A stretch of 64,000 bases of DNA, from positions 1 to 64,000 of IMG/VR virus record IMGVR_UViG_3300002026_000256. One strand, given 5' to 3'. Every line of letters begins with the position of its first letter. Position 1 is the first letter of the stretch. The position numbers and the translations under genes were made by a program. The notes below the pieces were generated by a model. It saw nothing but the letters and a program-made list of their open reading frames with translations, made no database searches and was not told where the DNA came from. Below are positions 5,458 through 44,664 of the stretch, in pieces. The stretch comes from a virus (lineage: Duplodnaviria > Caudoviricetes).

Positions 5458-6089
5458 CAATAGTTTCAATAAGTGGTCTTATTGGTAGCGGTAAAGACAC
5501 TGTGTCAGATTACCTAGTGACAATGCATGGATTTAGACGAGAATCATTTGCTGGTACTCTTAAAGATGCTGTTGCAGCAGTGTTTAGTTGGGATCGTGAT
5601 ATGCTAGAGGGTAAAACTGCAGAAGCAAGAGCAGAACGAGAAAAAGTTGACCATTGGTGGGCAAAAAAATTAAACATGCCACATCTAACACCGCGTTGGG
5701 TTTTACAATATTGGGGAACTGATGTATGCAGAGCAGGATTTCATGATGATATTTGGATTGCAAGCCTTGAGCGAAAACTAGAGCAGATGCGGCAATCTGA
5801 CATTGTCATAAGTGATGTTCGGTTTGTTAACGAGTTGGATATGTTGTCTAATGCTGGGGCAATAACTGTTTGCGTAACCCGTGGGAGCAACCCAGTTTGG
5901 TGGGACATTGCACAGCAAGCACAGTATGATGCTAATGCAGTGCAAACAATGAGTTCATTGGGAGTTCATAGATCAGAGTGGGATTGGGTTGGGTGCAACT
6001 TTGATGTAGAGTTGAATAATGATGGTACTAAAGATGATTTGTATAATCTAGTAGATACTAAAATTCTTAAAAATCTGGAGATAGCGTAG
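5454..6089 (+). CDS. Deoxynucleoside monophosphate kinase (T4 gp1-like)
   Basis: GLIGSGKDT P-loop, SFA..LKD, TPRWVLQYWGTD..R and ISDVRF.NE motifs. Confidence 0.85.
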   Translation: MTIVSISGLIGSGKDTVSDYLVTMHGFRRESFAGTLKDAVAAVFSWDRDMLEGKTAEARAEREKVDHWWAKKLNMPHLTPRWVLQYWGTDVCRAGFHDDIWIASLERKLEQMRQSDIVISDVRFVNELDMLSNAGAITVCVTRGSNPVWWDIAQQAQYDANAVQTMSSLGVHRSEWDWVGCNFDVELNNDGTKDDLYNLVDTKILKNLEIA

Positions 6090-6377
6090 TGGGTGACGCA
6101 ACCCATTGTGACTTAGATTTGACTACCTCTATTGCACAATTTGCACACACAGTTTTTAAATTTAACCAATCGTTGTTCTCACTATCACCGTCAACATGAA
6201 ACACAGATGATTGCTCAAAAAACTTAAATTTAAAATTACATTTTTCACACTTGTCTTTTTTCTTATAGCCAGCCCTGATCCAACCAGCAGGGGCTGGCTT
6301 TTTCTTTTTCTTATAACATTGACTTTAATTGCAACCAATTTTACTTTACAACATGGGCATAATTTTTGCTCTAACAT
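6067..6377 (-). pseudogene. Frameshifted Zn-finger/HNH-like protein
   Basis: Frame 1 MLEQKLCPCCKVKLVAI; a second frame continues SQCYKKK..KCEKCNF..VFHVDGDSENNDWLNLKTVCANC..SPDF* (HNH-type HVDG..NN..NL..VC..C). Confidence 0.65.
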
Positions 6378-6478: not shown

Positions 6479-9400
6479 ATGTTAGTATCCCCAGGTCTAG
6501 AGATTACCGTATCCGACGAGTCGCAATATGTATCGACTGCCGTTGGAACAGTACCATTTGTGTTGTTGGCAACAGCACAGGATAAAATTTTTAATGGTTT
6601 AGTTGCACCATACACTACAAAAGAGTTTGCAGGCAAACTAGTTGCAGTTACAAGCCAACGTGATTTAATTACAAATTTCGGTTATCCTGATTTTAAACAA
6701 AGTGCTTCTGGTACTCCATCCCATGGCAATGAGTTGAACGAATACGGATTGATGGCTGCATACAGTGCGTTAGGTGTAGTAAACCGTATGTTTATTATCA
6801 GGGCTGACATTGACCTTGACCAATTAGCTGGAACATCAATACGCCCAATTGGTAACCCTACTGATGGAACACATTGGCTAGATTTAACAAGCTCGGCATG
6901 GGGTGTGTATGAATGGAATGCTGTAACACAAACGTTTGTGAACAAAGCTCCGCTAATTATTACGTCAACTACAAATGTTACTAATATTGCTGGAATTTTA
7001 ACACCAAACTCTAGTGTTGGTAGAATTGGTTCTTACGCAATTGTTGCAAATAGTCCAAATAATTACTTGTTCTATAAACGTTTAGATAACAACTGGGTCC
7101 AAGTAGGAAGTACTGATTGGCAAAATTCATTCCCAGCAGTTCAAGGTACTGTATCTAGTCCAACGATTACACCAGGTAGCCAAATGACAATTAACGCCGT
7201 TACTGTGTCGTTTATTGGCTCATCGACTGCATTGGCAGTGTCTAGCATTAACAGTGCTAATATCCCAGGTGTTACTGCTGGTACGTCAAATAATAAAGTA
7301 GTTTTGTTTGTAACTAACGATGCTAAGAGTGACGGTGTTACTGCTGATGGTTTGCTTAAAATTGTAGACGGACCAGGATCCCCTGCATTTGCAATGGGCA
7401 TTCAAACTACATTTACTAATTTTTCTGGAGTTGTTGAGCAATATATTACTACTTCTCCAGCATTAGAATTTGGTGGTTATGTACAAATTCCAGACTGGAG
7501 AATTACTGATGATACTCCACGTCCAAGCGGTAGCGTTTGGGTTAAGACATCTGTTCTTGGCGCAGGCGCAAATTTAAGTTTCAAAGTATTTAACGAAGCA
7601 GATGATGTTTGGACTCCGATTGCTGCCCCTATTTTTAGTGATGAGGCGGAAGCAATTTACCAACTTGATCGGTTTAACGGTGGTTTTAGTATTGAAGCAG
7701 GTTCTTTATATGTATTGCGTGATGTACTTAATAACGGCACTGTAACTTATCGTCCGTATTTCCGTGAAACGCAAGGGTCAATGTCTATTTTTGGTAATGT
7801 ACCAAATTCACCAATGGTATTTGTTACTGGTGATGCATTTAGAATTAAATCATCTTTAACTGGTCAATCATCGTTGCTTGACAATGTTATTACGTTAAGC
7901 GGACCATCGTCTGATGATTTTGTTAGTGCATTGTTAGCAGCTAACATTCCAGATATTTCTGCTACTATTGAAGCAACTGGTGCTATTACATTACATCATA
8001 GGCAAGGCGGCGTAGTTGAGTTACAAAATGTAGTAGGTACTCCGTTAACTACTGCTGGATTTACATCAGCTACTGTTGGATTACGTTACAAGCCAGGAAC
8101 TAACATTTTAATTGGTAGCAACTTTGCTCCATTAGTGTATACCTATTCATTCTCTCAACCATATACTGCACCAGAAGATGGTACAATGTGGTATTACAAC
8201 AGTCCATTAGATGTTGATATCATGATAAATGATACAACTGGATGGAAAGGATACAAAAATGTATCAAGGGATGCACGTGGTTTTAACTTAACACAAACTG
8301 ACCCTGCTGGTCCAATAATGGCACCAATAGCTCCAATTACTCAAGCAGATACGACTCCGTTGGTTGCAGGTGACTTATGGATTAATACTGGTGATTTAGA
8401 AAATTATCCTTTAATTTCACGTTGGACAGGCCACAAATGGCAGCTACTTGATAACACTGATATTATAACACAAAATGGTATTGTGTTTGCTGATGCACGT
8501 TGGGATACCAGTGGTACTGTTGACCCAGCTGCTGGTAGAGTGTCTGAAATTGCTGACATGTTAACAAGTAATTATAAAGATTTAGACTGCCCTGACCACA
8601 GATTATATCCACGTGGAACTTTATTGTTTAACACACGCCGTTCTGGCTTTAATATTAAACGGTATATGTCTAACTATTTTAATGAGCATTCATATCCAGA
8701 TCAAGCAATGATTGATCCGGTAACTGGGCATGACAACTTGCCAGTACAACGTGCTACATGGGTTACTTCAAGTGGTTTACAAAATGATGGTAGCCCATAC
8801 ATGGGACACAATTCACAGCGTATTATGGTCGTTAAAGCAATGCGCGGTGCGTTAGATGCTAACGATATCGTACGTGAAGAAAGTTTCCAGTTCAACTTAA
8901 TTGTTGCTCCTGGGTACCAAGAACTTATTAGTAACATGGTTATGTTAAACAACGACCGTAAGAATACAGCGTTTATTATTGGTGATACACCAATGGATAT
9001 GCCTGCTAAGATTATGGACTTTACTGCATGGTCTAACAATACCACTGGTAAAGGTTTGTCTACAGCAGACCCATACTTAGGTGTTTACTACCCACACGCT
9101 TTAACTAATGACTTGCAAGGTAACACTATTATGATGCCAGCAAGCCATATGATTTTACGTGCCGCTATTAAATCAGACCAAGTTTCATATCCATGGTTTG
9201 CATACGCTGGAACACGCCGCGGAACAATTGATAATGCAACTGACATTGGTTACGTTGATCGCCGCCGTGGTAGCTTTGTGCGTAACGGTGTTAACCAAGG
9301 ATTGCGTGATGCATTGTATCAGTTAAACATTAACCCATTGACGATTCTTCCAGGTGTTGGCTTAGTTAACTTTGGCAATAAGACACGTAATGGTTTTGCT

Positions 9401-31049: not shown

Positions 31050-31222
31050 GTTGACTTTTCCTGAAAGGTGTGTATAATCAGTATTTAGCGCAAGTGATGT
31101 TACAACAAAACAACATTTCGGTGAAAAAAGTGTAGACAAATTACAGAAGTAGTGTTACACTTGGTATAAATAACTTTACGAAGCAAAATTTTTTGTTTCG
31201 GATAAATAAATTTAGTCAGTAG

Positions 31223-31251
31223 TTGACAGCAAGAATAAATAATGTTATACT
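31223..31251 (+). promoter_or_regulatory. sigma70 promoter with extended -10
   Basis: TTGACA-17-TATACT preceded by TGn. Confidence 0.85.
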
Positions 31252-31299
31252 TGATGCTTAGGTTAGTAATTTTTAAGAAAGAATTTAGAGCGTAACAAA

Positions 31300-31458
31300 A
31301 TGAAATCGTCCGTACATAGTTTAACCCATACCTTTAGTTTAGTGCCGTTGTGGCTCCAGACTACTGCGATTATGGCGGCTGGGTCGGAGATTATAACACC
31401 ACGTTGCGGTTCAAATTATGATAAATCGTTGGGGTTTGATAAAGGAAGGGTTGTTTAG
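31300..31458 (+). CDS. Putative attenuator leader peptide (52 aa)
   Basis: MKSSVHSLTHTFSLVPLWLQTTAIMAAGSEIITPRCGSNYDKSLGFDKGRVV*; lies between the promoter and a terminator; contains all 20 amino acids. Confidence 0.55.
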   Translation: MKSSVHSLTHTFSLVPLWLQTTAIMAAGSEIITPRCGSNYDKSLGFDKGRVV

Positions 31459-31485
31459 CACTTAGCAAACAACTACAAATTTAAC

Positions 31486-31521
31486 AAACCCTAGGACCAA
31501 AACCCTAGGGTTTTTTGTTTT
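31486..31521 (+). terminator. Intrinsic terminator with alternative antiterminator pairing
   Basis: AAACCCTAGG-ACCAAAAC-CCTAGGGTTT then TTTGTTTT; the 5' arm can instead pair with TTGGGGTTTG (31429-31438). Confidence 0.85.
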
Positions 31522-31550
31522 GTAAATGATAAAAATAAATTAAAAAGTAG

Positions 31551-31579
31551 TTGACAAATAGATAAATTAATGTTAAAAT
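31551..31579 (+). promoter_or_regulatory. sigma70 promoter
   Basis: TTGACA-17-TAAAAT with TGn. Confidence 0.75.
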
Positions 31580-31594
31580 AGAAAGACAGGAATT

Positions 31595-31714
31595 ATGAAA
31601 CGCAATGCAGTTGCTAAAGACTTAAGAACTCCTAAGTACCGCATGCGAGTTGTATGTGCTAAAAAGGGCAAAGGCTCTTGGAGGCGAGTTGACAAATATA
31701 GAGAAAGGATTTAA
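31595..31714 (+). CDS. arfA: ArfA-like alternative ribosome-rescue peptide (39 aa)
   Basis: MKRNAVAKDLRTPKYRMRVVCAKKGKGSWRRVDKYRERI aligns by eye to E. coli ArfA [34 protein letters not shown] AGGA. Confidence 0.65.
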   Translation: MKRNAVAKDLRTPKYRMRVVCAKKGKGSWRRVDKYRERI

Positions 31715-31768
31715 TGCGTGAGTAAACGTTGTTAAATGAGATTTTTATTAAGTGTGAAATAAGAGCTA

Positions 31769-32024
31769 TATGCCCAGGAAACGAGGTCCTGCTAGCGCAC
31801 TATAAACATGTTAGAAACGGGCGTCCTTGGGGATGAAGCATCTTGTGTGGTGTGAAAAAACCAGGAGTATTAAAGCATTTTGCTTGCTAGTAACTGAGTT
31901 GCAAACTTTGAATTTGTATCCACTAACGCAATGCAACAACTGAGTCAGCACCGGCGCTCTATGCGTCTTCGTGTTTTCCACTGTCAAAGTGCTTTAATAC
32001 ACACATTGGTTAACTCTAGTGTGT
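31769..32024 (+). ncRNA. Structured RNA ahead of the first tRNA
   Basis: ATGCCC/GGGCGT multistem; 16-bp stem 31867-31882/31985-32000 with a G.U pair; no ORF. Confidence 0.5.
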
Positions 32025-32034
32025 AACAAAATTT

Positions 32035-32110
32035 GGGCTGATAGTGATACTGGGGTACACGATGGTTTTGCAATCCATAGATAGGAGTTCGATCCTCCTT
32101 CGGTCCACCA
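32035..32110 (+). tRNA. tRNA-Ala(TGC)
   Basis: G3.U70, loop TTTGCAA, CCA. Confidence 0.85.
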
Positions 32111-32115
32111 AATTT

Positions 32116-32199
32116 GGAGATGTGGGTGAGTGGCTGAAACCGGAAGTCTGTAAAACTTCTCTTAATCGCGCGTTGGTTCGAATCCAACCGTCTCCACCA
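32116..32199 (+). tRNA. tRNA-Tyr(GTA)
   Basis: GAAGT-CTGTAAA-ACTTC, CCA. Confidence 0.93.
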
Positions 32200-32204
32200 A
32201 ATAC

Positions 32205-32398
32205 TAAGATGTTAGTGAGTAAGATAGTAGACGAAAACCGAGCCGTGCCTTCCGTGCGGTCTTCACAGTGCGTGGACACAATGAGAAACGTAAGGTGACG
32301 AACGATGAGCAAAGTCGGTCCAGTAGGGTATGAAAAGTAACATTGGCGGTGACGTTGCCGCAGGACAGAAGCTCTAGGGCGCCGCGTAATCCTGCAAG
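32205..32398 (+). ncRNA. Unidentified structured RNA in a tRNA slot (some RNase P-like words)
   Basis: About 190 nt between two tRNAs; stems GCAGGA/TCCTGC, GGCGG/TTGCC, ACCG/CGGT. Confidence 0.4.
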
Positions 32399-32403
32399 AA
32401 TTT

Positions 32404-32478
32404 GGGCTGCTAGTATAGGGGGAATTACCACTGCCTTGCACGTAGTAAATCGGAGTTCGAGTCTCCGGCGGTCCACCA
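32404..32478 (+). tRNA. tRNA-Ala(TGC), second copy
   Basis: G3.U70, ACTGC-CTTGCAC-GTAGT, CCA. Confidence 0.9.
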
Positions 32479-32485
32479 AATTAAT

Positions 32486-32560
32486 GCGGCGTGTAGTGTA
32501 ATGGCAACACACTTCTCTGTGAAAGAAGTATCGATGGTCCGATTCCATCCCGTCCGCCCA
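32486..32560 (+). tRNA. tRNA-His(GTG)
   Basis: CTTCT-CTGTGAA-AGAAG, T-loop TCCGATT, CCA. Confidence 0.85.
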
Positions 32561-32566
32561 GTTTTT

Positions 32567-32642
32567 GCGGTAGTAGCATAGCGGCTAATGCACCTCCCTG
32601 TCTAGGAGACCACCGTGGGTTCGAGTCCCATTTACCGCGCCA
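32567..32642 (+). tRNA. tRNA-Asp(GTC)
   Basis: CTCC-CTGTCTA-GGAG, G73, CCA. Confidence 0.9.
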
Positions 32643-32647
32643 GTTTT

Positions 32648-32676
32648 AGGATCAGTTCAGCAAAGTTGATCCTGTT
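32648..32676 (+). ncRNA. TTCAGCAA stem cassette 1 (minimal)
   Basis: AGGATCAG-TTCAGCAAAG-TTGATCCTGTT. Confidence 0.6.
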
Positions 32677-32683
32677 ATATTTT

Positions 32684-32766
32684 GGAGATGGAAAGCTGAT
32701 GGCTTCAGCACCGAGTCTGTAAAACTCGTCCTTCGGGGAGTGGATCGAAACCACACGTCTCCACCA
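32684..32766 (+). tRNA. tRNA-Tyr(GTA), divergent second copy
   Basis: CGAGT-CTGTAAA-ACTCG, T-loop ATCGAAA, CCA. Confidence 0.85.
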
Positions 32767-32778
32767 AATTTATTAAAT

Positions 32779-32870
32779 GCGAGCGAGACTTGGAAGTCAG
32801 AGAGGCCTTATAAACCTTTTAGCGCCAGATTAGCGTTCTTGAGAAGGTTCGATCCCTTCCGCTCGTACCA
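32779..32870 (+). tRNA. tRNA-Ile(TAT)-like with long variable region
   Basis: GCGAGCG/CGCTCGT acceptor, loop CTTATAA closed by C.A, GAAGG-TTCGATC-CCTTC, ACCA. Confidence 0.7.
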
Positions 32871-32938
32871 AATTCTGGTTACCAGTATTAAGACGGTGAC
32901 TAGCGCCAGCAGACTACCTCGTGGCTGGCATAAATTAT

Positions 32939-33016
32939 TCCGCAGAACGCAAGTATGGACATGGGCGTGGCTGTTAACCACTGTTTAACTCGGATCGTTA
33001 CCGAGGTGCGGAGCCA
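32939..33016 (+). tRNA. tRNA-Asn(GTT), atypical
   Basis: GTGG-CTGTTAA-CCAC, T-loop ATCGTTA, GCCA. Confidence 0.75.
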
Positions 33017-33025
33017 AGTTAGTAT

Positions 33026-33060
33026 AGGGATATGGTGTAATTGGGAGAACGACAGTTTTG
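33026..33060 (+). pseudogene. Orphan 5' half of a tRNA (Trp-like)
   Basis: AGGGATA-TGGTGTAATTGGGAGAAC-GACAGT then breaks off at the endonuclease late promoter. Confidence 0.55.
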
Positions 33061-33073
33061 TATAAATAAAGTT

Positions 33074-33694
33074 ATGCACTATATAATTTATAAAACCTCA
33101 AACATTTTGACTGGTCAATACTATATCGGATGCCATCAAACTTTGAATTTAACAGATGGATATTTAGGGTCTGGGAAATATTTAAAACGTGCTATAAAAA
33201 AGTACGGGGCATCAACTTTTAAATTTGAAATATTGCATGTAGCATCTTCAAAAGAAGAAATGTTTAATATAGAACGTTCGATAGTAAACGAAGAGTTAAT
33301 AACCGATCCATTGTCGTACAACCTAAAGATAGGTGGTAGTGGAGGAAATCCAGGTATTGTTGGGGCATTCAAAGGAAGACAACACTCCGCTGAAACTAAA
33401 GAAAAACAGCGCCAAGCGTCACTTCAACAAGTTACGTCAGATGAAAAACGTCGCAAATTGTCTGAAAACAACGCAATGCGCAATGATCCAGCAATTAGAA
33501 AGAAAGTTGCGCTGTCATTGACAGGCAGAGTTTGCTCAGACGAACATCGTAGTAGAGTAGCAGAAGCTAATCTAGGAAAAATACTAATTAATAACGGCAC
33601 GGTTGCAAAACGCATACCGAAAGACGAGTTAGCAAAATATGAAAATACAGAGTGGTCCAAAGGTGGACTGCCTCGAAAGATAATATCTCGATAG
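33074..33694 (+). mobile_element. Free-standing GIY-YIG homing endonuclease (Seg-like, NUMOD3)
   Basis: YIIYKTSN..QYYIG.H..YLGSG..LKRAIKKYG..F..E..YNL..GG; FKGRQHSAETKEK; stop codon lies inside tRNA-Trp. Confidence 0.9.
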
Positions 33695-33758
33695 TGTAAT
33701 GGCAACACGTTGTTCTCCAAAAGCAACATTCTAGGTTCGAGTCCTAGTCGGGATGCCA
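33685..33758 (+). tRNA. tRNA-Trp(CCA)
   Basis: TTGTT-CTCCAAA-AGCAA, GGTTCGAGTCC, GCCA. Confidence 0.9.
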
Positions 33759-33765
33759 AGTTAAT

Positions 33766-33840
33766 GCGTGTAAGATGTTAATGGTTGCATGATTGGCTTC
33801 CACCCAGTATGAGCAGGTTCGATTCCTGTTACTCGCACCA
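33766..33840 (+). tRNA. tRNA-Gly(TCC)
   Basis: ATTGG-CTTCCAC-CCAGT, CCA. Confidence 0.88.
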
Positions 33841-33880
33841 AACAAGCATGTCTTTGCAGTGGCTAGCATACTGCATAATT

Positions 33881-33954
33881 GCCCCTTTAGTTAAAAAGTA
33901 TAACACTGTGCTGATAACGCAGAGTCGGAGGAGCGTTACCTCCCGGGGGTACCA
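33881..33954 (+). tRNA. tRNA-Ile(GAT), atypical T-loop
   Basis: CTGTG-CTGATAA-CGCAG, T-loop AGCGTTA, CCA. Confidence 0.8.
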
Positions 33955-33962
33955 AGTTTTTT

Positions 33963-34021
33963 AGGTTCCGTTCAGCAAATTCTAAAAATTCAACTTTTAA
34001 TTGAAAAATAAGGAACCTGTT
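33963..34021 (+). ncRNA. TTCAGCAA stem cassette 2 carrying a Lys(UUU) anticodon stem-loop mimic
   Basis: AGGTTCC..GGAACCTGTT enclosing TTCAA-CTTTTAA-TTGAA. Confidence 0.65.
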
Positions 34022-34027
34022 ATCTAT

Positions 34028-34102
34028 ATCCCGTGACGCAGCTAGAGTGGCGACCAGGCCTTCACCCTGGTGAGAGGGGAGCGTAACCCCTACGGGATAC
34101 CA
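34028..34102 (+). tRNA. tRNA-Glu(TTC)-like, atypical (C33, T-loop AGCGTAA)
   Basis: ATCCCGT/ACGGGAT, ACCAGG-CCTTCAC-CCTGGT, ACCA. Confidence 0.65.
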
Positions 34103-34108
34103 ATTTTA

Positions 34109-34181
34109 GCCTTTGTCGTATAACTGGTGTGTACGTGTGCCTGAAGAGCACGAGGAGACGGTTCGATTCCGTACGAAGGTA
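34109..34181 (+). tRNA. tRNA-Phe(GAA), lacking encoded CCA and fused to a Ser remnant
   Basis: TGTGC-CTGAAGA-GCACG, GGTTCGATTCC, ends GAAGGTA. Confidence 0.8.
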
Positions 34182-34241
34182 GTCTTGAAAACTGTCGGTC
34201 CCGAAAGGGGCCCGTGAGTTCGAATCTCACCGTCCCCGCCA
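34181..34241 (+). pseudogene. 3' part of tRNA-Ser(TGA), 5' half missing
   Basis: AGT-CTTGAAA-ACT, long variable arm, GTGAG-TTCGAAT-CTCAC, GCCA. Confidence 0.8.
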
Positions 34242-34248
34242 ACAATAT

Positions 34249-34322
34249 CTTCTGCAAGCATTAAGGTGATGCAGTAGGCTCTTACCCTACAGAACACGGT
34301 CCAATACCGTGGCAGAGGACCA
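34249..34322 (+). tRNA. tRNA-Lys(CTT)
   Basis: GTAGG-CTCTTAC-CCTAC, T-loop TCCAATA, CCA. Confidence 0.8.
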
Positions 34323-34328
34323 AGTTTT

Positions 34329-34429
34329 TGTAGTGCAGTCGGTTAGATTGTGGTAAAGGCGATGCGAGTAGAAGTTCTACTGATAAATATCGAAGCGCAT
34401 CTTAATGATAATGTGTGCAGCCTACTACA
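34329..34429 (+). ncRNA. Unidentified structured RNA in a tRNA slot
   Basis: TGTAGT/ACTACA closing stem, GATGCG/CGCATC, AGTAG/CTACT. Confidence 0.45.
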
Positions 34430-34441
34430 GAAAAGTTTTAT

Positions 34442-34515
34442 GCTTCTAGAGCCAGTTGGATAGGCAGCGGATTGCAAACCCGTGTAACAGAGTTCGATTC
34501 TCTGTAGGAGTTCCA
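34442..34515 (+). tRNA. tRNA-Cys(GCA)
   Basis: Loop TTGCAAA, U73 discriminator, CCA. Confidence 0.85.
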
Positions 34516-34524
34516 GATAAACTA

Positions 34525-34602
34525 GCCCTTGTAGGCAAATTGGTAAAGTCGGCTGTCTCAAAAGCAGTTATTTTGTGAGTTCGAATCTCACCAAGGGCAC
34601 CA
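34525..34602 (+). tRNA. tRNA-Leu(CAA), short variable arm
   Basis: GCTGT-CTCAAAA-GCAGT, CCA. Confidence 0.88.
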
Positions 34603-34643
34603 ATTTATTTCTTGCATTGAGCGAGAACGTGTAAATAGTTATA

Positions 34644-34717
34644 CTCGGTATGGTGAAATGGTATCATTTATGCTTTGGGAGCATATGGCGTAGGTTCGAT
34701 TCCTGCTACCGAGACCA
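34644..34717 (+). tRNA. tRNA-Pro(TGG)
   Basis: TATGC-TTTGGGA-GCATA, CCA. Confidence 0.92.
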
Positions 34718-34724
34718 AGTTTTT

Positions 34725-34806
34725 AGGATAGCTTCAGCAACCCATTACAATTGGCCGTCAGTTTCGATGTTCTGACATTAAACAAAAAGTAGACAGCTAT
34801 CCTGTT
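34725..34806 (+). ncRNA. TTCAGCAA stem cassette 3
   Basis: AGGATAGC..GCTATCCTGTT enclosing GTCAG-TTTCGATGTT-CTGAC. Confidence 0.6.
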
Positions 34807-34813
34807 GCATTTT

Positions 34814-34890
34814 CAGTGTGTGGTGACAAGTGGACGTCGACCTGTTTTGGAAGCAGGAATATGCCGGTTCGAGGCCGGCCACACTGACCA
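34814..34890 (+). tRNA. tRNA-Pro(TGG), divergent second copy
   Basis: CCTGT-TTTGGAA-GCAGG, T-loop TTCGAGG, CCA. Confidence 0.85.
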
Positions 34891-34898
34891 AGTTTTAT

Positions 34899-34973
34899 TC
34901 CCTAGTAGCTCAGCGGTAGAGTAGTTGGCTGTTAACCAATTGGTCCGTGGTTCGATCCCACGCTGGGGAGCCA
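34899..34973 (+). tRNA. tRNA-Asn(GTT), canonical
   Basis: TAGCTCAGCGGTAGAG D-arm, CTGTTAA loop, GCCA. Confidence 0.95.
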
Positions 34974-35007
34974 AGTTTTAAATTAAGAAAAATAATAACA
35001 AACAAAT

Positions 35008-35082
35008 AGTGATATCGTTCAAATAGTAGGACCTGAGTCTCATAAGCTCAAGAAGAAGGGGCAGTACCTTCTATCACTACCA
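35008..35082 (+). tRNA. tRNA with CAT anticodon (Met or Ile2), atypical T-loop
   Basis: TGAGT-CTCATAA-GCTCA, T-loop GGCAGTA, CCA. Confidence 0.75.
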
Positions 35083-35089
35083 AATAAAT

Positions 35090-35165
35090 GCGTGTATAGC
35101 TCAGCTGGTAGAGCAGTTCGTTGCCAACGAACAGGTCGCAGGTTCGAACCCTGTTGCCCGCACCA
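35090..35165 (+). tRNA. tRNA-Gly(GCC)
   Basis: GTTCG-TTGCCAA-CGAAC, CCA. Confidence 0.93.
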
Positions 35166-35172
35166 AATTTTA

Positions 35173-35247
35173 GCTCTTGAAGCATTGACGGCGATGTACC
35201 GGTTTTGTAATCCGGATAGTGGAGTTCAAGTCTTCACAGGAGCACCA
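35173..35247 (+). tRNA. tRNA-Thr(TGT)
   Basis: CCGG(T)-TTTGTAA-(T)CCGG, CCA. Confidence 0.82.
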
Positions 35248-35255
35248 ACACATAT

Positions 35256-35326
35256 TGCGGGGATGAAGGTTCTCGGCCAGTCTCATAAGCTCGGTCTTCC
35301 AAGTTCGATTCTTGGCCCCGCTTCCA
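35256..35326 (+). tRNA. tRNA-Met(CAT), initiator-like, reduced D-arm
   Basis: Unpaired 1:72, GCGGGG/CCCCGC, loop CTCATAA, CCA. Confidence 0.7.
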
Positions 35327-35336
35327 AATTTCAAAT

Positions 35337-35410
35337 GGGGTTGTAATTCAATGGTAGAATATTCGGCTTTTAACCGATCAACGAGGGTCCGATTCCCTCC
35401 AGCCCTACCA
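35337..35410 (+). tRNA. tRNA-Lys(TTT)
   Basis: TTCGG-CTTTTAA-CCGAT, T-loop TCCGATT, CCA. Confidence 0.9.
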
Positions 35411-35416
35411 ACACAT

Positions 35417-35491
35417 GCTGCTATCGACTATCGGTAAGGTCGCTACCCTTTCAAGGTGGAGAGCGGGGTTCAACTCCCCGTAGCAGTACCA
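35417..35491 (+). tRNA. tRNA-Glu(TTC)
   Basis: CTACC-CTTTCAA-GGTGG, CCA. Confidence 0.92.
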
Positions 35492-35566
35492 GCTCTATTA
35501 GTATAGTGGTTACTACAACTGTTTCGTAAGCAGTGATCAGGCGTTCGATTCGTCTATGGAGCACCA
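35492..35566 (+). tRNA. tRNA-Thr(CGT)
   Basis: ACTGT-TTCGTAA-GCAGT; no spacer after the preceding CCA. Confidence 0.88.
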
Positions 35567-35580
35567 AGAATAAATACAAT

Positions 35581-36231
35581 ATGAGCAACACTATATTTGA
35601 ACGCATTGATTCAAGAACTGATTTTGTAAATACCTGGCTATTTGAAATGCCAGAGGGAATTGGTAAATTTGAACTAGTTGATGCAGTTATTTACTCAATT
35701 AAAGATAGAATTAAATCTGGTGCAACAGTCATTGATTTGCCATCTGGATTACGAAAAATTGAAGGTACGCAAGTAGTTGACTATTGGTATGAGAAAGCAG
35801 GAGATATTGTTCTTGGTGCAGAGTTTGAAAAACGTGCACAGGGATTAGTAGTTACAATGATAGGTAAAGCAAATAAAGGCAGACCGCCGTTTGCTTCCGA
35901 CTTGTATAACGCAGTGCTAGCAGATAGGAAAACTTCTGGTGGTATTGATGCAATACGAATTTTAAGTGACCAAGCACTTAGCGATGAAGGAATTAAAATA
36001 TGGGAGCGTCTGCTTAGTCAAGGCCATCATATTTCAATTTACGATGCTAGCGAGCCAGGTAAAACTTTTTCTGAGATTACGACAGTTGCGGATTTGCACA
36101 AATATTTTCAAGACGATAACAGAAATTATCGCCGTTGGCAATATGTAATTTCAGAACAAGCTTCAAATGGTGAAGTGCGCTCATTTTTTAATACTAGAAG
36201 AATGCGAGAGCTAATTCCTGGTATGTTATAA
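35581..36231 (+). CDS. Hypothetical protein embedded in the tRNA array (possible GNAT-like fold)
   Basis: ATG at 35581 after TAAATA; ILSDQALSDEGIKIWERL. Confidence 0.7.
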   Translation: MSNTIFERIDSRTDFVNTWLFEMPEGIGKFELVDAVIYSIKDRIKSGATVIDLPSGLRKIEGTQVVDYWYEKAGDIVLGAEFEKRAQGLVVTMIGKANKGRPPFASDLYNAVLADRKTSGGIDAIRILSDQALSDEGIKIWERLLSQGHHISIYDASEPGKTFSEITTVADLHKYFQDDNRNYRRWQYVISEQASNGEVRSFFNTRRMRELIPGML

Positions 36232-36240
36232 TAGTTTTAA

Positions 36241-36331
36241 GGAGAGCGGGCAGGCCGGTAATGCAGCACCCTGCTAAGGTGTAGAGTCGTGATGAGCGGC
36301 TCATAGGGTTCGATTCCCTAGCTCTCCGCCA
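36241..36331 (+). tRNA. tRNA-Ser(GCT)
   Basis: GCACC-CTGCTAA-GGTGT, long variable arm, GCCA. Confidence 0.92.
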
Positions 36332-36337
36332 ATTTAC

Positions 36338-36413
36338 TGGGGGTTTGTCATTTGGTAATGACACTACGCTTTGACCGTAGGAAAGTCGGGTCCGATTCCC
36401 ACACCCTCTGCCA
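36338..36413 (+). tRNA. tRNA-Gln(TTG)
   Basis: CTACG-CTTTGAC-CGTAG, T-loop TCCGATT, GCCA. Confidence 0.82.
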
Positions 36414-36621
36414 ATGCTAACAATTTATCGACAACGACAAAGAGCATAACCAAGTATTGTACGAGCTAGGTCTACTAGACGATGATGACGATTGGAATCT
36501 GTTTTGCAAGATGCAACGCGAGCAGATGGAAAATGATCCTGACTCTGAAACTTGGCACAAAGCAATGGGAACAGTTCCACAGGAAATACCCACTACTGGG
36601 TGGTGGATCAAAGCAAAATGA
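36414..36621 (+). pseudogene. Small ORF with apparent frameshift
   Basis: MLTIYR.. stops early; a second frame reads DKEHNQVLYELGLLDDDDDW..PTTGWWIKAK*. Confidence 0.4.
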
Positions 36622-36854
36622 ATTTAACTGAACAACTCGTTGAGTTAGCAGAGCAAATTGAAATGGGTGACCCAATTGATTGGGGCATGCTTAGTATTAA
36701 TGAACACGATGCATACAAGTTAATGGCAGCAGGCGTATTAGACAACTATTTGGGCATGGATCCAGACTGTCGTGATATGATGTTGCTTGCTACAGTAGTT
36801 AAGCTAACTGTAGAGAATTTTGCACTTAACTTAAAGTTGATGCAACAAAAATAA
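36618..36854 (+). CDS. Hypothetical protein
   Basis: MNLTEQLVELAEQIEMGDPIDWGML..; ATGA-coupled; ends immediately before tRNA-Leu. Confidence 0.7.
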   Translation: MNLTEQLVELAEQIEMGDPIDWGMLSINEHDAYKLMAAGVLDNYLGMDPDCRDMMLLATVVKLTVENFALNLKLMQQK

Positions 36855-36931
36855 GCGGATGTAGACAAATTGGTAAAGTCAGCGGTCTTAGAAGCCGTTA
36901 TCTGAGAGTTCGAGTCTCTCCTTCCGCACCA
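36855..36931 (+). tRNA. tRNA-Leu(TAG), short variable arm
   Basis: GCGGT-CTTAGAA-GCCGT, CCA. Confidence 0.9.
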
Positions 36932-36936
36932 AATTA

Positions 36937-37019
36937 GTGGAATTGGCTAAGACAAATTGGCACAGTCGCCAGATTTAAAACCTGGGCTTTTATGGGTTCG
37001 AGTCCCATATTCCACACCA
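36937..37019 (+). tRNA. tRNA-Leu(TAA)-like, atypical
   Basis: GTGGAAT/ATTCCAC, CCAG(A)-TTTAAAA-(C)CTGG, short variable arm, CCA. Confidence 0.65.
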
Positions 37020-37025
37020 AATAAA

Positions 37026-37100
37026 ATCGCCTTCGTATAGTGGATAATACACAAGCCTGCGAAGCTTGAAACACAGGTCCGATTCCTGTAGGCGGTACCA
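37026..37100 (+). tRNA. tRNA-Arg(GCG)
   Basis: CAAGC-CTGCGAA-GCTTG, CCA. Confidence 0.85.
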
Positions 37101-37107
37101 CTCACAA

Positions 37108-37181
37108 GCCTCGGTAGTTTAATGGTAGAACATTGCTCCTACAAAGCAAATGCGACGGTTCAATTCCGTAACGAGGTACCA
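37108..37181 (+). tRNA. tRNA-Val(TAC)
   Basis: TTGCT-CCTACAA-AGCAA, CCA. Confidence 0.85.
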
Positions 37182-37186
37182 ATTAT

Positions 37187-37265
37187 GCGCCGGTATGCCG
37201 CTTGTCTTCGAAACAAGAGAAAGCTAACTGGATACATGCACGTTCGAATCGTGTTCGGCGCACCA
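37187..37265 (+). tRNA. tRNA-Arg(TCG)-like, D-armless with long variable region
   Basis: GCGCCGG/TCGGCGC, 7-nt linker, CTTGT-CTTCGAA-ACAAG, T arm, ACCA. Confidence 0.65.
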
Positions 37266-37271
37266 AAATAA

Positions 37272-37345
37272 GCTCTCGTATGTAAATGGTATACTAACTC
37301 TTTGGTAAGGAGTTGTCCCAAGTTCGATTCTTGGCTAGAGCACCA
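37272..37345 (+). tRNA. tRNA-Thr(GGT)
   Basis: ACTCT-TTGGTAA-GGAGT, CCA. Confidence 0.88.
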
Positions 37346-37350
37346 CATAA

Positions 37351-37425
37351 CTCGCTATCGTATAGTGGAAAATACAGAAGTTTCCTAAACTTTAAACGGT
37401 CGTTCGATTCGACCTAGCGTGACCA
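37351..37425 (+). tRNA. tRNA-Arg(CCT)
   Basis: GAAGT-TTCCTAA-ACTTT, CCA. Confidence 0.85.
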
Positions 37426-42814: not shown

Positions 42815-42898
42815 GCGAGTGTGGAGGAACGGTAGACTCAGAAGACTTAAAAATCTTCCGCTTTATGCGTGTCGGTTCGAATCCGACCACTCGCACCA
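42815..42898 (+). tRNA. tRNA-Leu(TAA) with an 8-nt anticodon loop
   Basis: GAAGA-CTTAAAAA-TCTTC, variable arm, GGTTCGAATCC, CCA. Confidence 0.8.
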
Positions 42899-43957: not shown

Positions 43958-44335
43958 ATGGCATATTCAGATAAAGTAGTAGATCATTATGAAAATCCTC
44001 GTAACGTTGGGTCTTTTGAAAAAGACGATCCTGACGTAGGCACTGGTATGGTAGGCGCCCCTGCATGTGGCGACGTAATGAAATTGCAAATCAAAGTAGA
44101 AGATGGCGTCATCACTGATGCAAGGTTTAAAACCTATGGCTGCGGTAGCGCAATCGCATCGTCAAGTTTGGTTACTGAGTTAGTTAGGGGAATGACTCTT
44201 GACCAAGCCGTCGCTATTAAAAACAGTCAACTAGCAGAAGAACTGGCGTTGCCGCCAGTTAAAATTCATTGCTCAATACTTGCTGAAGATGCTATTAAAG
44301 CAGCAGTGGCTGATTATAGGAAAAACCACCAATGA
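43958..44335 (+). CDS. iscU: Fe-S cluster scaffold IscU
   Basis: [53 protein letters not shown]. Confidence 0.97.
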
Positions 44336-44664
44336 ACGATCAAATTAATTTTACTGACTCAGTTGTAACTAAGCTAAAAGAAATTTTAACTGAAGACAAT
44401 ACACCAGGTAATAAATTTAGGGTGTATGTCCAAGGGGGCGGTTGCTCTGGATTTTCATACGGGTTTGCATTGGATACTGAGGTAAATGATGATGACTTTA
44501 CGTTTGACAGAGACGGGGTTGCATTAGTTGTTGACTCTATGTCTATGCAATATCTTAACGGAGCTACAATTGATTTTAAAGAAGATTTATATGGTAGCTC
44601 ATTTGTAATTGACAATCCTGGCGCTACGTCAACGTGTGGATGTGGTAGTTCGTTTAGTATGTAA
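44332..44664 (+). CDS. erpA: A-type Fe-S carrier (ErpA/IscA)
   Basis: [36 protein letters not shown]. Confidence 0.9.

Follow-up and report, generated by a model that had tools for sequence, protein, structure and literature searches.

A 39-residue ArfA-family protein encoded ahead of a viral tRNA array

ArfA is best described in E. coli and Salmonella (YhdL, PF03889; structures 5MDV, 5MGP, 5U4I, 5H5U, and 7OJ0), and two structural studies serve here as the reference for the roles of its residues (PMC8012679, PMC5378476). The strand running from Q27 to E30, together with F25, recruits the release factor RF2; this strand, which includes R28-V29, pairs with domain 2/4 of that factor (PMC8012679). 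L19, L24, and F25 form a patch that binds Trp319 in the switch loop of RF2 and stabilizes the open form of RF2; an A18T variant recruits and binds RF2 but cannot activate it, and there is no release (PMC5378476, PMC8012679). E. coli ArfA tolerates truncation at Asn47 but not cuts after Met40 (PMC5378476). Translation of the enterobacterial gene uses an mRNA that is cut short at an internal hairpin, by which means tmRNA keeps arfA off (PMC8012679). BrfA of B. subtilis and ArfT of Francisella are also small, basic, RF-dependent rescue peptides whose tail lies in the mRNA channel, and BrfA has the KH motif and the addition of a beta-strand to RF2 in common with ArfA (PMC8012679). Bacterial ArfA has been reported only from gamma- and some betaproteobacteria, plus the BrfA group (PMC11633108).

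The domain is also on record in phages. It is annotated as g10 in Citromicrobium phage RXM (PMC8953757) and as gp30 in pelagiphage HTVC027P, where the gene is transcribed early and late in infection (PMC12753301). GenBank lists genes for an alternative ribosome-rescue factor in the Brevundimonas jumbo phages Kabachok, Papperlapapp, and Domovoi, whose products share 63% identity over residues 2-31 with the protein described below. These are likewise short, phage-borne ArfA-domain proteins with a function inferred from Pfam only, and the reports mention neither linkage to a tRNA array nor a missing minidomain nor a lack of non-stop regulation. A large survey of jumbo phages makes no mention of ArfA (PMC7824862), and in the literature we found no functional study of, or experiment on, any phage ArfA.

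The gene considered here lies in a 64,000-nucleotide stretch of viral DNA (the window) that is part of a linear IMG/VR virus record of 74,552 bp with a CheckV completeness of 21%. Among the products encoded in the record are a tail sheath of 1084 aa, a tail tube protein, a large terminase, a ssDNA-binding protein, and a UvsX-like recombinase. The terminase shares 54% identity with that of the Pseudomonas jumbo phage PA5oct and 43-50% with the enzymes of other jumbo phages. The record is therefore a fragment of an uncultured jumbo myophage, which with its PA5oct-like terminase differs from RXM, HTVC027P, and the Brevundimonas phages. Megablast of the arfA region against cultured phages found nothing. 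The features of the region, all on the plus strand, are as follows.

31223..31251, plus strand, upstream sigma-70-like promoter match (TTGACA-17-TATACT, TG)
31486..31513, plus strand, terminator-like hairpin with T-run, downstream of the leader region and ahead of arfA
31551..31579, plus strand, arfA-proximal sigma-70-like promoter match (TTGACA-17-TAAAAT, extended -10 TG, 11/12)
31588..31591, plus strand, Shine-Dalgarno-like AGGA, 3 nt upstream of the arfA start codon
31595..31714, plus strand, arfA-like gene, ATG to TAA, 39 aa, with the TAA stop at 31712-31714
31775..31888, plus strand, conserved non-coding element in the spacer that separates arfA from the tRNA array, with a CAGGA..TCCTG hairpin at its 5' end
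32035..37425, plus strand, tRNA array whose first member, tRNA-Ala, follows the arfA stop at a distance of 320 nt (ARAGORN)

The 39-codon ORF is a real gene of the ArfA family. An earlier note, made from the letters of this stretch, had read the motif N.V...L..P.YR.RV...KKGKGS(W)..K as an ArfA core and named the Pfam profile as a check. The protein scores 29.6 bits against PF03889, above the gathering cut-off of 25.5 (E 4.7e-7), with residues 4-35 matching profile positions 12-43 of 44; a six-frame search of the contig with the same profile gives 30 bits. The motif is present as read, and in a search of PDB sequences ArfA chains are the only matches, aligned without gaps (query 2-37 with E. 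coli 12-47). When the profile of the phage clade is compared with an enterobacterial ArfA profile by hhalign, the probability is 96.6% (E about 5e-10; 5.4e-10) over 38 ungapped columns, residues 2-39 pairing with 12-49 of the Salmonella-type sequence; this enterobacterial profile was built from 15 sequences, the ArfA search there having returned close relatives only. ArfA accounts for 28 of the 30 nearest clusters in the ESM Atlas. A search of NCBIfam with the protein gave no match, and PHROGs gave a single, non-significant one (E 0.13). The note's description of the gene as unannotated is only partly right: the gene lies below the cutoff of the ORF track, but the 39-aa protein of the 74,552-bp contig is already in a public protein collection, with its PF03889 match precomputed.

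Homologues begin with the same N-terminal residues as the 39-aa protein. Measured against three viral relatives, the gene has a pS of 0.66-0.84 and a pN of 0.14-0.23 (pN/pS 0.21-0.27); it is under purifying selection, with synonymous sites near saturation and the protein kept. ArfA is ordered only on the ribosome. AlphaFold2, run with 59 homologues, predicts a short helix at residues 5-10, a lower-confidence helix at 31-36, and a mostly extended remainder (mean pLDDT per ten-residue block 87, 84, 64, and 62; pTM 0.29), and the first of these predicted helices fits the start of the helix at residues 15-24 of E. coli ArfA. The prediction as a whole also agrees with a peptide that takes up an ordered shape only when ribosome-bound.

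Like the enterobacterial proteins, with which it aligns ungapped over 12-49, the phage protein is small, basic, and mostly unstructured. It keeps N14, L20, P23, F25 (Tyr here), R26, R28, V29, the stretch K33-K34-G-K-G-S-Y39 (Trp in place of Y39), and R41 of E. coli ArfA, and the K44-H45 pair is KY here and KH in the closest homologues. The kept positions are contacts with the decoding centre, the RF2 beta-strand, and the tunnel, P23 packing on A1492/A1493 (PMC8012679, PMC5378476). The RF2-docking strand is retained as Y15, R16, and M17-R18-V19-V20, equivalent to F25, R26, and Q27-R28-V29-E30 of E. coli, and the mRNA-channel tail (E. coli 31-48) as KKGKGSW, R31, and K34-Y35. At its C-terminus the protein extends to the equivalent of E. 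coli residue 49.

The N-terminus differs. About ten first residues of the E. coli minidomain (1-14) have no counterpart in the phage protein, which is without residues 1-10, and PF03889 positions 1-11 are unmatched; A18, L19, and L24 of E. coli are replaced by K8, D9, and K14. Both the absence of the minidomain and the three substitutions hold for the whole phage clade. A longer N-terminus from an upstream start can be eliminated, as an in-frame TAA at 31574-31576, inside the -10 hexamer and 21 nt upstream of the ATG, closes the frame. The C-terminal end runs past the Asn47 equivalent, but the earlier expectation that a core-only version would be constitutively active leaves out of account that some ten minidomain residues are gone and that A18/L19/L24 read K/D/K. 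The E. coli-type device for opening RF2 is absent and the tunnel and RF2-docking parts are intact, so that rescue is probable rather than certain. ArfA and RF2 pair in a species-specific manner (PMC8012679), which weighs against the rescue reading too.

The same note credited the gene with a Shine-Dalgarno sequence and its own promoter. Both elements are there, the AGGA and the 11/12 promoter match, and each needs a qualification. The AGGA stands only 3 nt from the ATG and the leader of a transcript from the proximal promoter would be 8-9 nt by its predicted start, so the Shine-Dalgarno element is weak or short-spaced: translation signals are present, not strong. Purine-rich elements of this kind also precede the gene in three viral relatives (L002, L003, and L066). 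The promoter is not shared by the closest relative, L001. There, about 400 nt of upstream sequence are 71% identical to the window (31125-31521 with L001:5576-5987), and the hexamers of the 31223..31251 promoter recur about 300 nt upstream of arfA. The terminator hairpin matching 31486-31513 sits about 20 nt before the arfA ATG of L001 (5930-6001), which lacks a segment of about 60 nt that bears the proximal promoter within 31486-31594 of the window; no proximal promoter was found at the equivalent place. L002 has a comparable 11/12 promoter match 35 nt upstream of arfA. In the L001 lineage arfA thus seems to rely on transcripts that read through from the promoter farther upstream; in the window, the match at 31223..31251 is a possible source of read-through for arfA and the tRNAs, and it and the proximal promoter may both operate.

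Downstream, no promoter match was found in 31580-32500, that is, none between arfA and tRNA-Ala, and the only terminator-like site in this interval is a weak 5-bp one at 31953-31967. The gene is, as had been claimed, the first of the tRNA island, standing before approximately 28 tRNA genes on the same strand. Occupying the corresponding place, L001 (6346-6409) and L002 (6136-6249) have sequences 75-80% identical to the element at 31775-31888, which has no match in Rfam. Compared with shuffled sequences, neither the arfA mRNA (z -0.99) nor the 320-nt spacer (z -1.71) folds significantly more stably. Within the array, four Rfam tRNA matches above the gathering score (33881-33951, 35008-35079, 36338-36410, and 36937-37016; 30.8-41.4 bits) are uncalled by ARAGORN and may be divergent tRNAs or tRNA-like RNAs.

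Besides being viral and standing ahead of tRNA genes, the gene ends differently from its enterobacterial counterpart, which typically has an RNase III/terminator hairpin and a poorly conserved hydrophobic tail. A local-fold scan recovers the hairpin of Salmonella arfA as a positive control (-26 kcal/mol, around codons 52-66); the same scan finds no regulatory hairpin in the phage gene and its 3' flank, where the best structures reach merely -10.6 to -13.5 kcal/mol. The 39-aa protein has no hydrophobic tail, and the frame closes with its own TAA, in agreement with the earlier reading of the gene as stop-terminated. Because of these three properties, the product should, to judge by its gene, escape tmRNA control and tagging. 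This stop-terminated design is the common one among the best 80 viral relatives, with strong 3' hairpins in two and overlap with a tRNA in one. The further suggestions that such a version would be constitutively active, and that it would clear ribosomes stalled on mRNA cut by host defences, are plausible, the former with the missing minidomain as a real caveat and the latter as pure inference.

Leading a tRNA array is a recurrent arrangement for these genes. An exhaustive HMMER search gave 70 cluster representatives of 36-93 aa (E <= 1e-3), and a scan of IMG/VR showed that at least 433 confirmed viral contigs encode relatives. ARAGORN was run on the best 80 of these at least 433 viral loci. 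Where at least 3 kb was available on both sides (33 viral loci), tRNAs lie within 3 kb downstream at 14, always on the same strand, and upstream at 2; grouped by protein similarity, tRNAs are found downstream in 12 of 39 clusters versus upstream in 2 of 33, counts in which related phages are non-independent samples. The three nearest viral relatives (L001-L003), all above the ArfA cut-off, are each directly upstream of a same-strand tRNA array. A cultured example is the Ralstonia jumbo phage RsoM2USA, in which an unannotated 40-aa ORF ends 10 nt before a tRNA-Pro and heads 11 tRNAs; GenBank has an opposite-strand hypothetical gene, RsoM2USA_176, at this place instead.

L082:3998-4120 (MG752970.1, about 111841-111963), complement strand, RsoM2USA ArfA-family ORF, ArfA 25.7 bits

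The distance to the tRNAs varies among the relatives: at L066 (6001-6126) the ORF ends 11 nt before a tRNA-Pro within an array, and at L078 (6001-6126) an ArfA/DUF7230-like ORF enters a tRNA-Arg (6088-6164), its stop lying inside the tRNA.

Among cultured phages, tblastn matches come from phages of Roseobacter, Ralstonia, Brevundimonas, Pelagibacter, and Microcystis. The gene is not new in kind: Pfam finds it, and several published phages already have an annotated ArfA. That phages infecting alphaproteobacteria or cyanobacteria carry relatives hints at a mode of action not tied to the details known from E. coli. Neither BrfA nor ArfT gave a sequence match here; the N-terminal parts of both are unlike that of the phage protein, and BrfA is made from a non-stop mRNA.

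In many of the viral matches the N-terminal half is nearly letter-for-letter the same and three residues (GKG) of the tunnel motif are missing, which makes them DUF7230 (PF23876). This family includes Stupor_003, a 41-aa protein of Acinetobacter T4-like phages (DUF7230 46 bits). It resembles the window protein in the AKDLRTPKY-R-M-R-V-V half, in size, and in charge, and often heads phage tRNA arrays; it differs in being without GKG, whereas the window protein has the full tunnel motif. The two phage groups align with each other at 99.5% probability (hhalign, E 4.5e-22), and DUF7230 aligns weakly with the enterobacterial ArfA profile (41.7%). The window protein gives no PF23876 match at E <= 10 (cut-off 27 bits), and its close homologues reach 15-22 bits. 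It therefore lies on the ArfA side of a continuum linking ArfA to DUF7230. Small basic ORFs of DUF7230 type also occur in chromosomal contigs of Marinobacter, SAR86, and Micavibrio (L101, L096-L098, L094) and in contigs of Bacteriovoracaceae. Because the genome of Marinobacter lipolyticus has no PF03889 match above the cut-off, the question is raised whether DUF7230 substitutes for ArfA in this species. In 201 genomes of the class to which Marinobacter belongs we found 2 ArfA matches, too few to describe N-terminal variation in bacteria. At another locus (L023), 1.4 kb downstream of a DUF7230-type gene (6001-6159), ARAGORN calls a permuted tmRNA (7526-7893) with the tag ANEESFLMAA.

We favor the reading that the gene encodes a minimal phage ArfA that acts in RF2-dependent ribosome rescue and forms a translation-maintenance module with the tRNAs, and we give it a probability of about 0.6. 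The module is suggested by the position of arfA as first cistron ahead of approximately 28 tRNA genes. From the kept residues and this arrangement we infer that the peptide would bind the ribosome, where its Y-R-M-R-V-V segment would join domain 2/4 of host RF2 as an extra beta-strand, and that host RF2 would then hydrolyse the peptidyl-tRNA. No release factor, Pth, or tmRNA genes were found on the 74.5-kb fragment, and therefore host RF2 would be required. (Matches to the tmRNA family RF00023 on the contig are tRNAs below the cut-off, and ARAGORN finds no tmRNA.) Unlike enterobacterial ArfA, the peptide would not be tagged and destroyed by tmRNA, and in timing it would be made whenever a shared arfA-tRNA transcription unit is on. 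The tRNAs would prevent stalls, and ArfA would benefit the phage by freeing the ribosomes that still end on broken mRNAs during infection. Our confidence is no higher mainly because the E. coli RF2-opening device is missing.

That same gap lends some weight to a possible, if distinctly less probable, reading in which the peptide occupies the vacant A site and mRNA channel without activating RF2, and so blocks or diverts host rescue, for instance by excluding tmRNA-SmpB, or shields idle ribosomes, or else works via RF1, an ArfB-like protein, or a phage factor. Apart from the minidomain, two of the three residues of the Trp319 patch are not kept and a Lys stands at A18 (PMC5378476), and binding without activation is a known state, that of E. 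coli ArfA A18T (PMC8012679). DUF7230, moreover, lacks GKG and has a nearly unchanged N-terminal half, so selection may act mainly there, and relatives occur in phages of hosts not known to use ArfA (PMC11633108). However, the RF2 beta-strand segment and an aromatic residue at F25 are retained, the type with the short N-terminus is also found in bacterial-looking contigs with ArfA-style tails, where the source names it ArfA, and the benefit to a phage of freeing ribosomes is obvious; nothing that we found speaks for an inhibitor role. Taking the ArfA-like and DUF7230 proteins together, we consider it a tentative idea, and a doubtful one, that they constitute a single large family of A-site/mRNA-channel peptides, carried mainly by viruses and typically encoded at the head of phage tRNA operons. 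Its mechanism, on this idea not yet described because the RF2-activating minidomain is absent, would be a different way of opening RF2, the use of another release factor, or a blockade of tmRNA-SmpB.

The signals around the gene bear on whether a true RF2-dependent rescue factor might have its output gated, by an upstream leader and terminator or by processing of an arfA-tRNA precursor, and so be made mainly when translation falters. The terminator-like hairpin at 31486-31513 lies behind the promoter at 31223-31251, in L001 the hairpin directly precedes arfA with no promoter between, and in L066, L078, and RsoM2USA the ORF abuts or enters a tRNA. In the window, however, an 11/12 extended -10 promoter match separates the terminator from the gene, whose own stop comes 320 nt before the first tRNA, and the low counts of tRNA overlap (one) and strong 3' hairpins (two) among the best 80 viral relatives also count against gating, which we regard as improbable. 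A chance or decayed frame without function might be suspected from the very short length, the weakly spaced Shine-Dalgarno element, and the low-complexity basic composition, but it is effectively refuted by a score above the curated Pfam cut-off, by hundreds of viral homologues with the same start and length class, and by a protein kept while its synonymous sites are saturated.

Phages with large tRNA sets are thought to sustain translation while host mRNAs and tRNAs are destroyed. A rescue factor beside the tRNAs would add ribosome recycling to this translation toolkit. The interest lies mainly in the family-wide pattern, not in this copy: hundreds of phages carry a stop-terminated ArfA without the minidomain, the genes preferentially lead tRNA arrays, and they grade into the uncharacterized DUF7230. 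Should the two groups prove to be one family acting by such a mechanism, this would provide a first function for DUF7230 and point to a general phage strategy for controlling ribosome rescue. A natural, putative A-site peptide of 39 residues would also lend itself as a minimal model of RF2 opening by ArfA, and cultured systems exist in Ralstonia phage RsoM2USA and pelagiphage HTVC027P, with the Acinetobacter T4-like phages for DUF7230.

Two further observations concern the window outside the array. At 42815-42898 ARAGORN reports a tRNA whose anticodon has four bases (taaa) and to which it assigns no amino acid; this tRNA scores 48 bits against the Rfam tRNA model. At 43958-44664 an IscU-like gene (NifU_N, E 4e-51) and an IscA-like gene (Fe-S_biosyn) lie beside a gene for an APS-kinase-like P-loop protein, and the phage IscU is approximately 90% identical to many metagenomic proteins.
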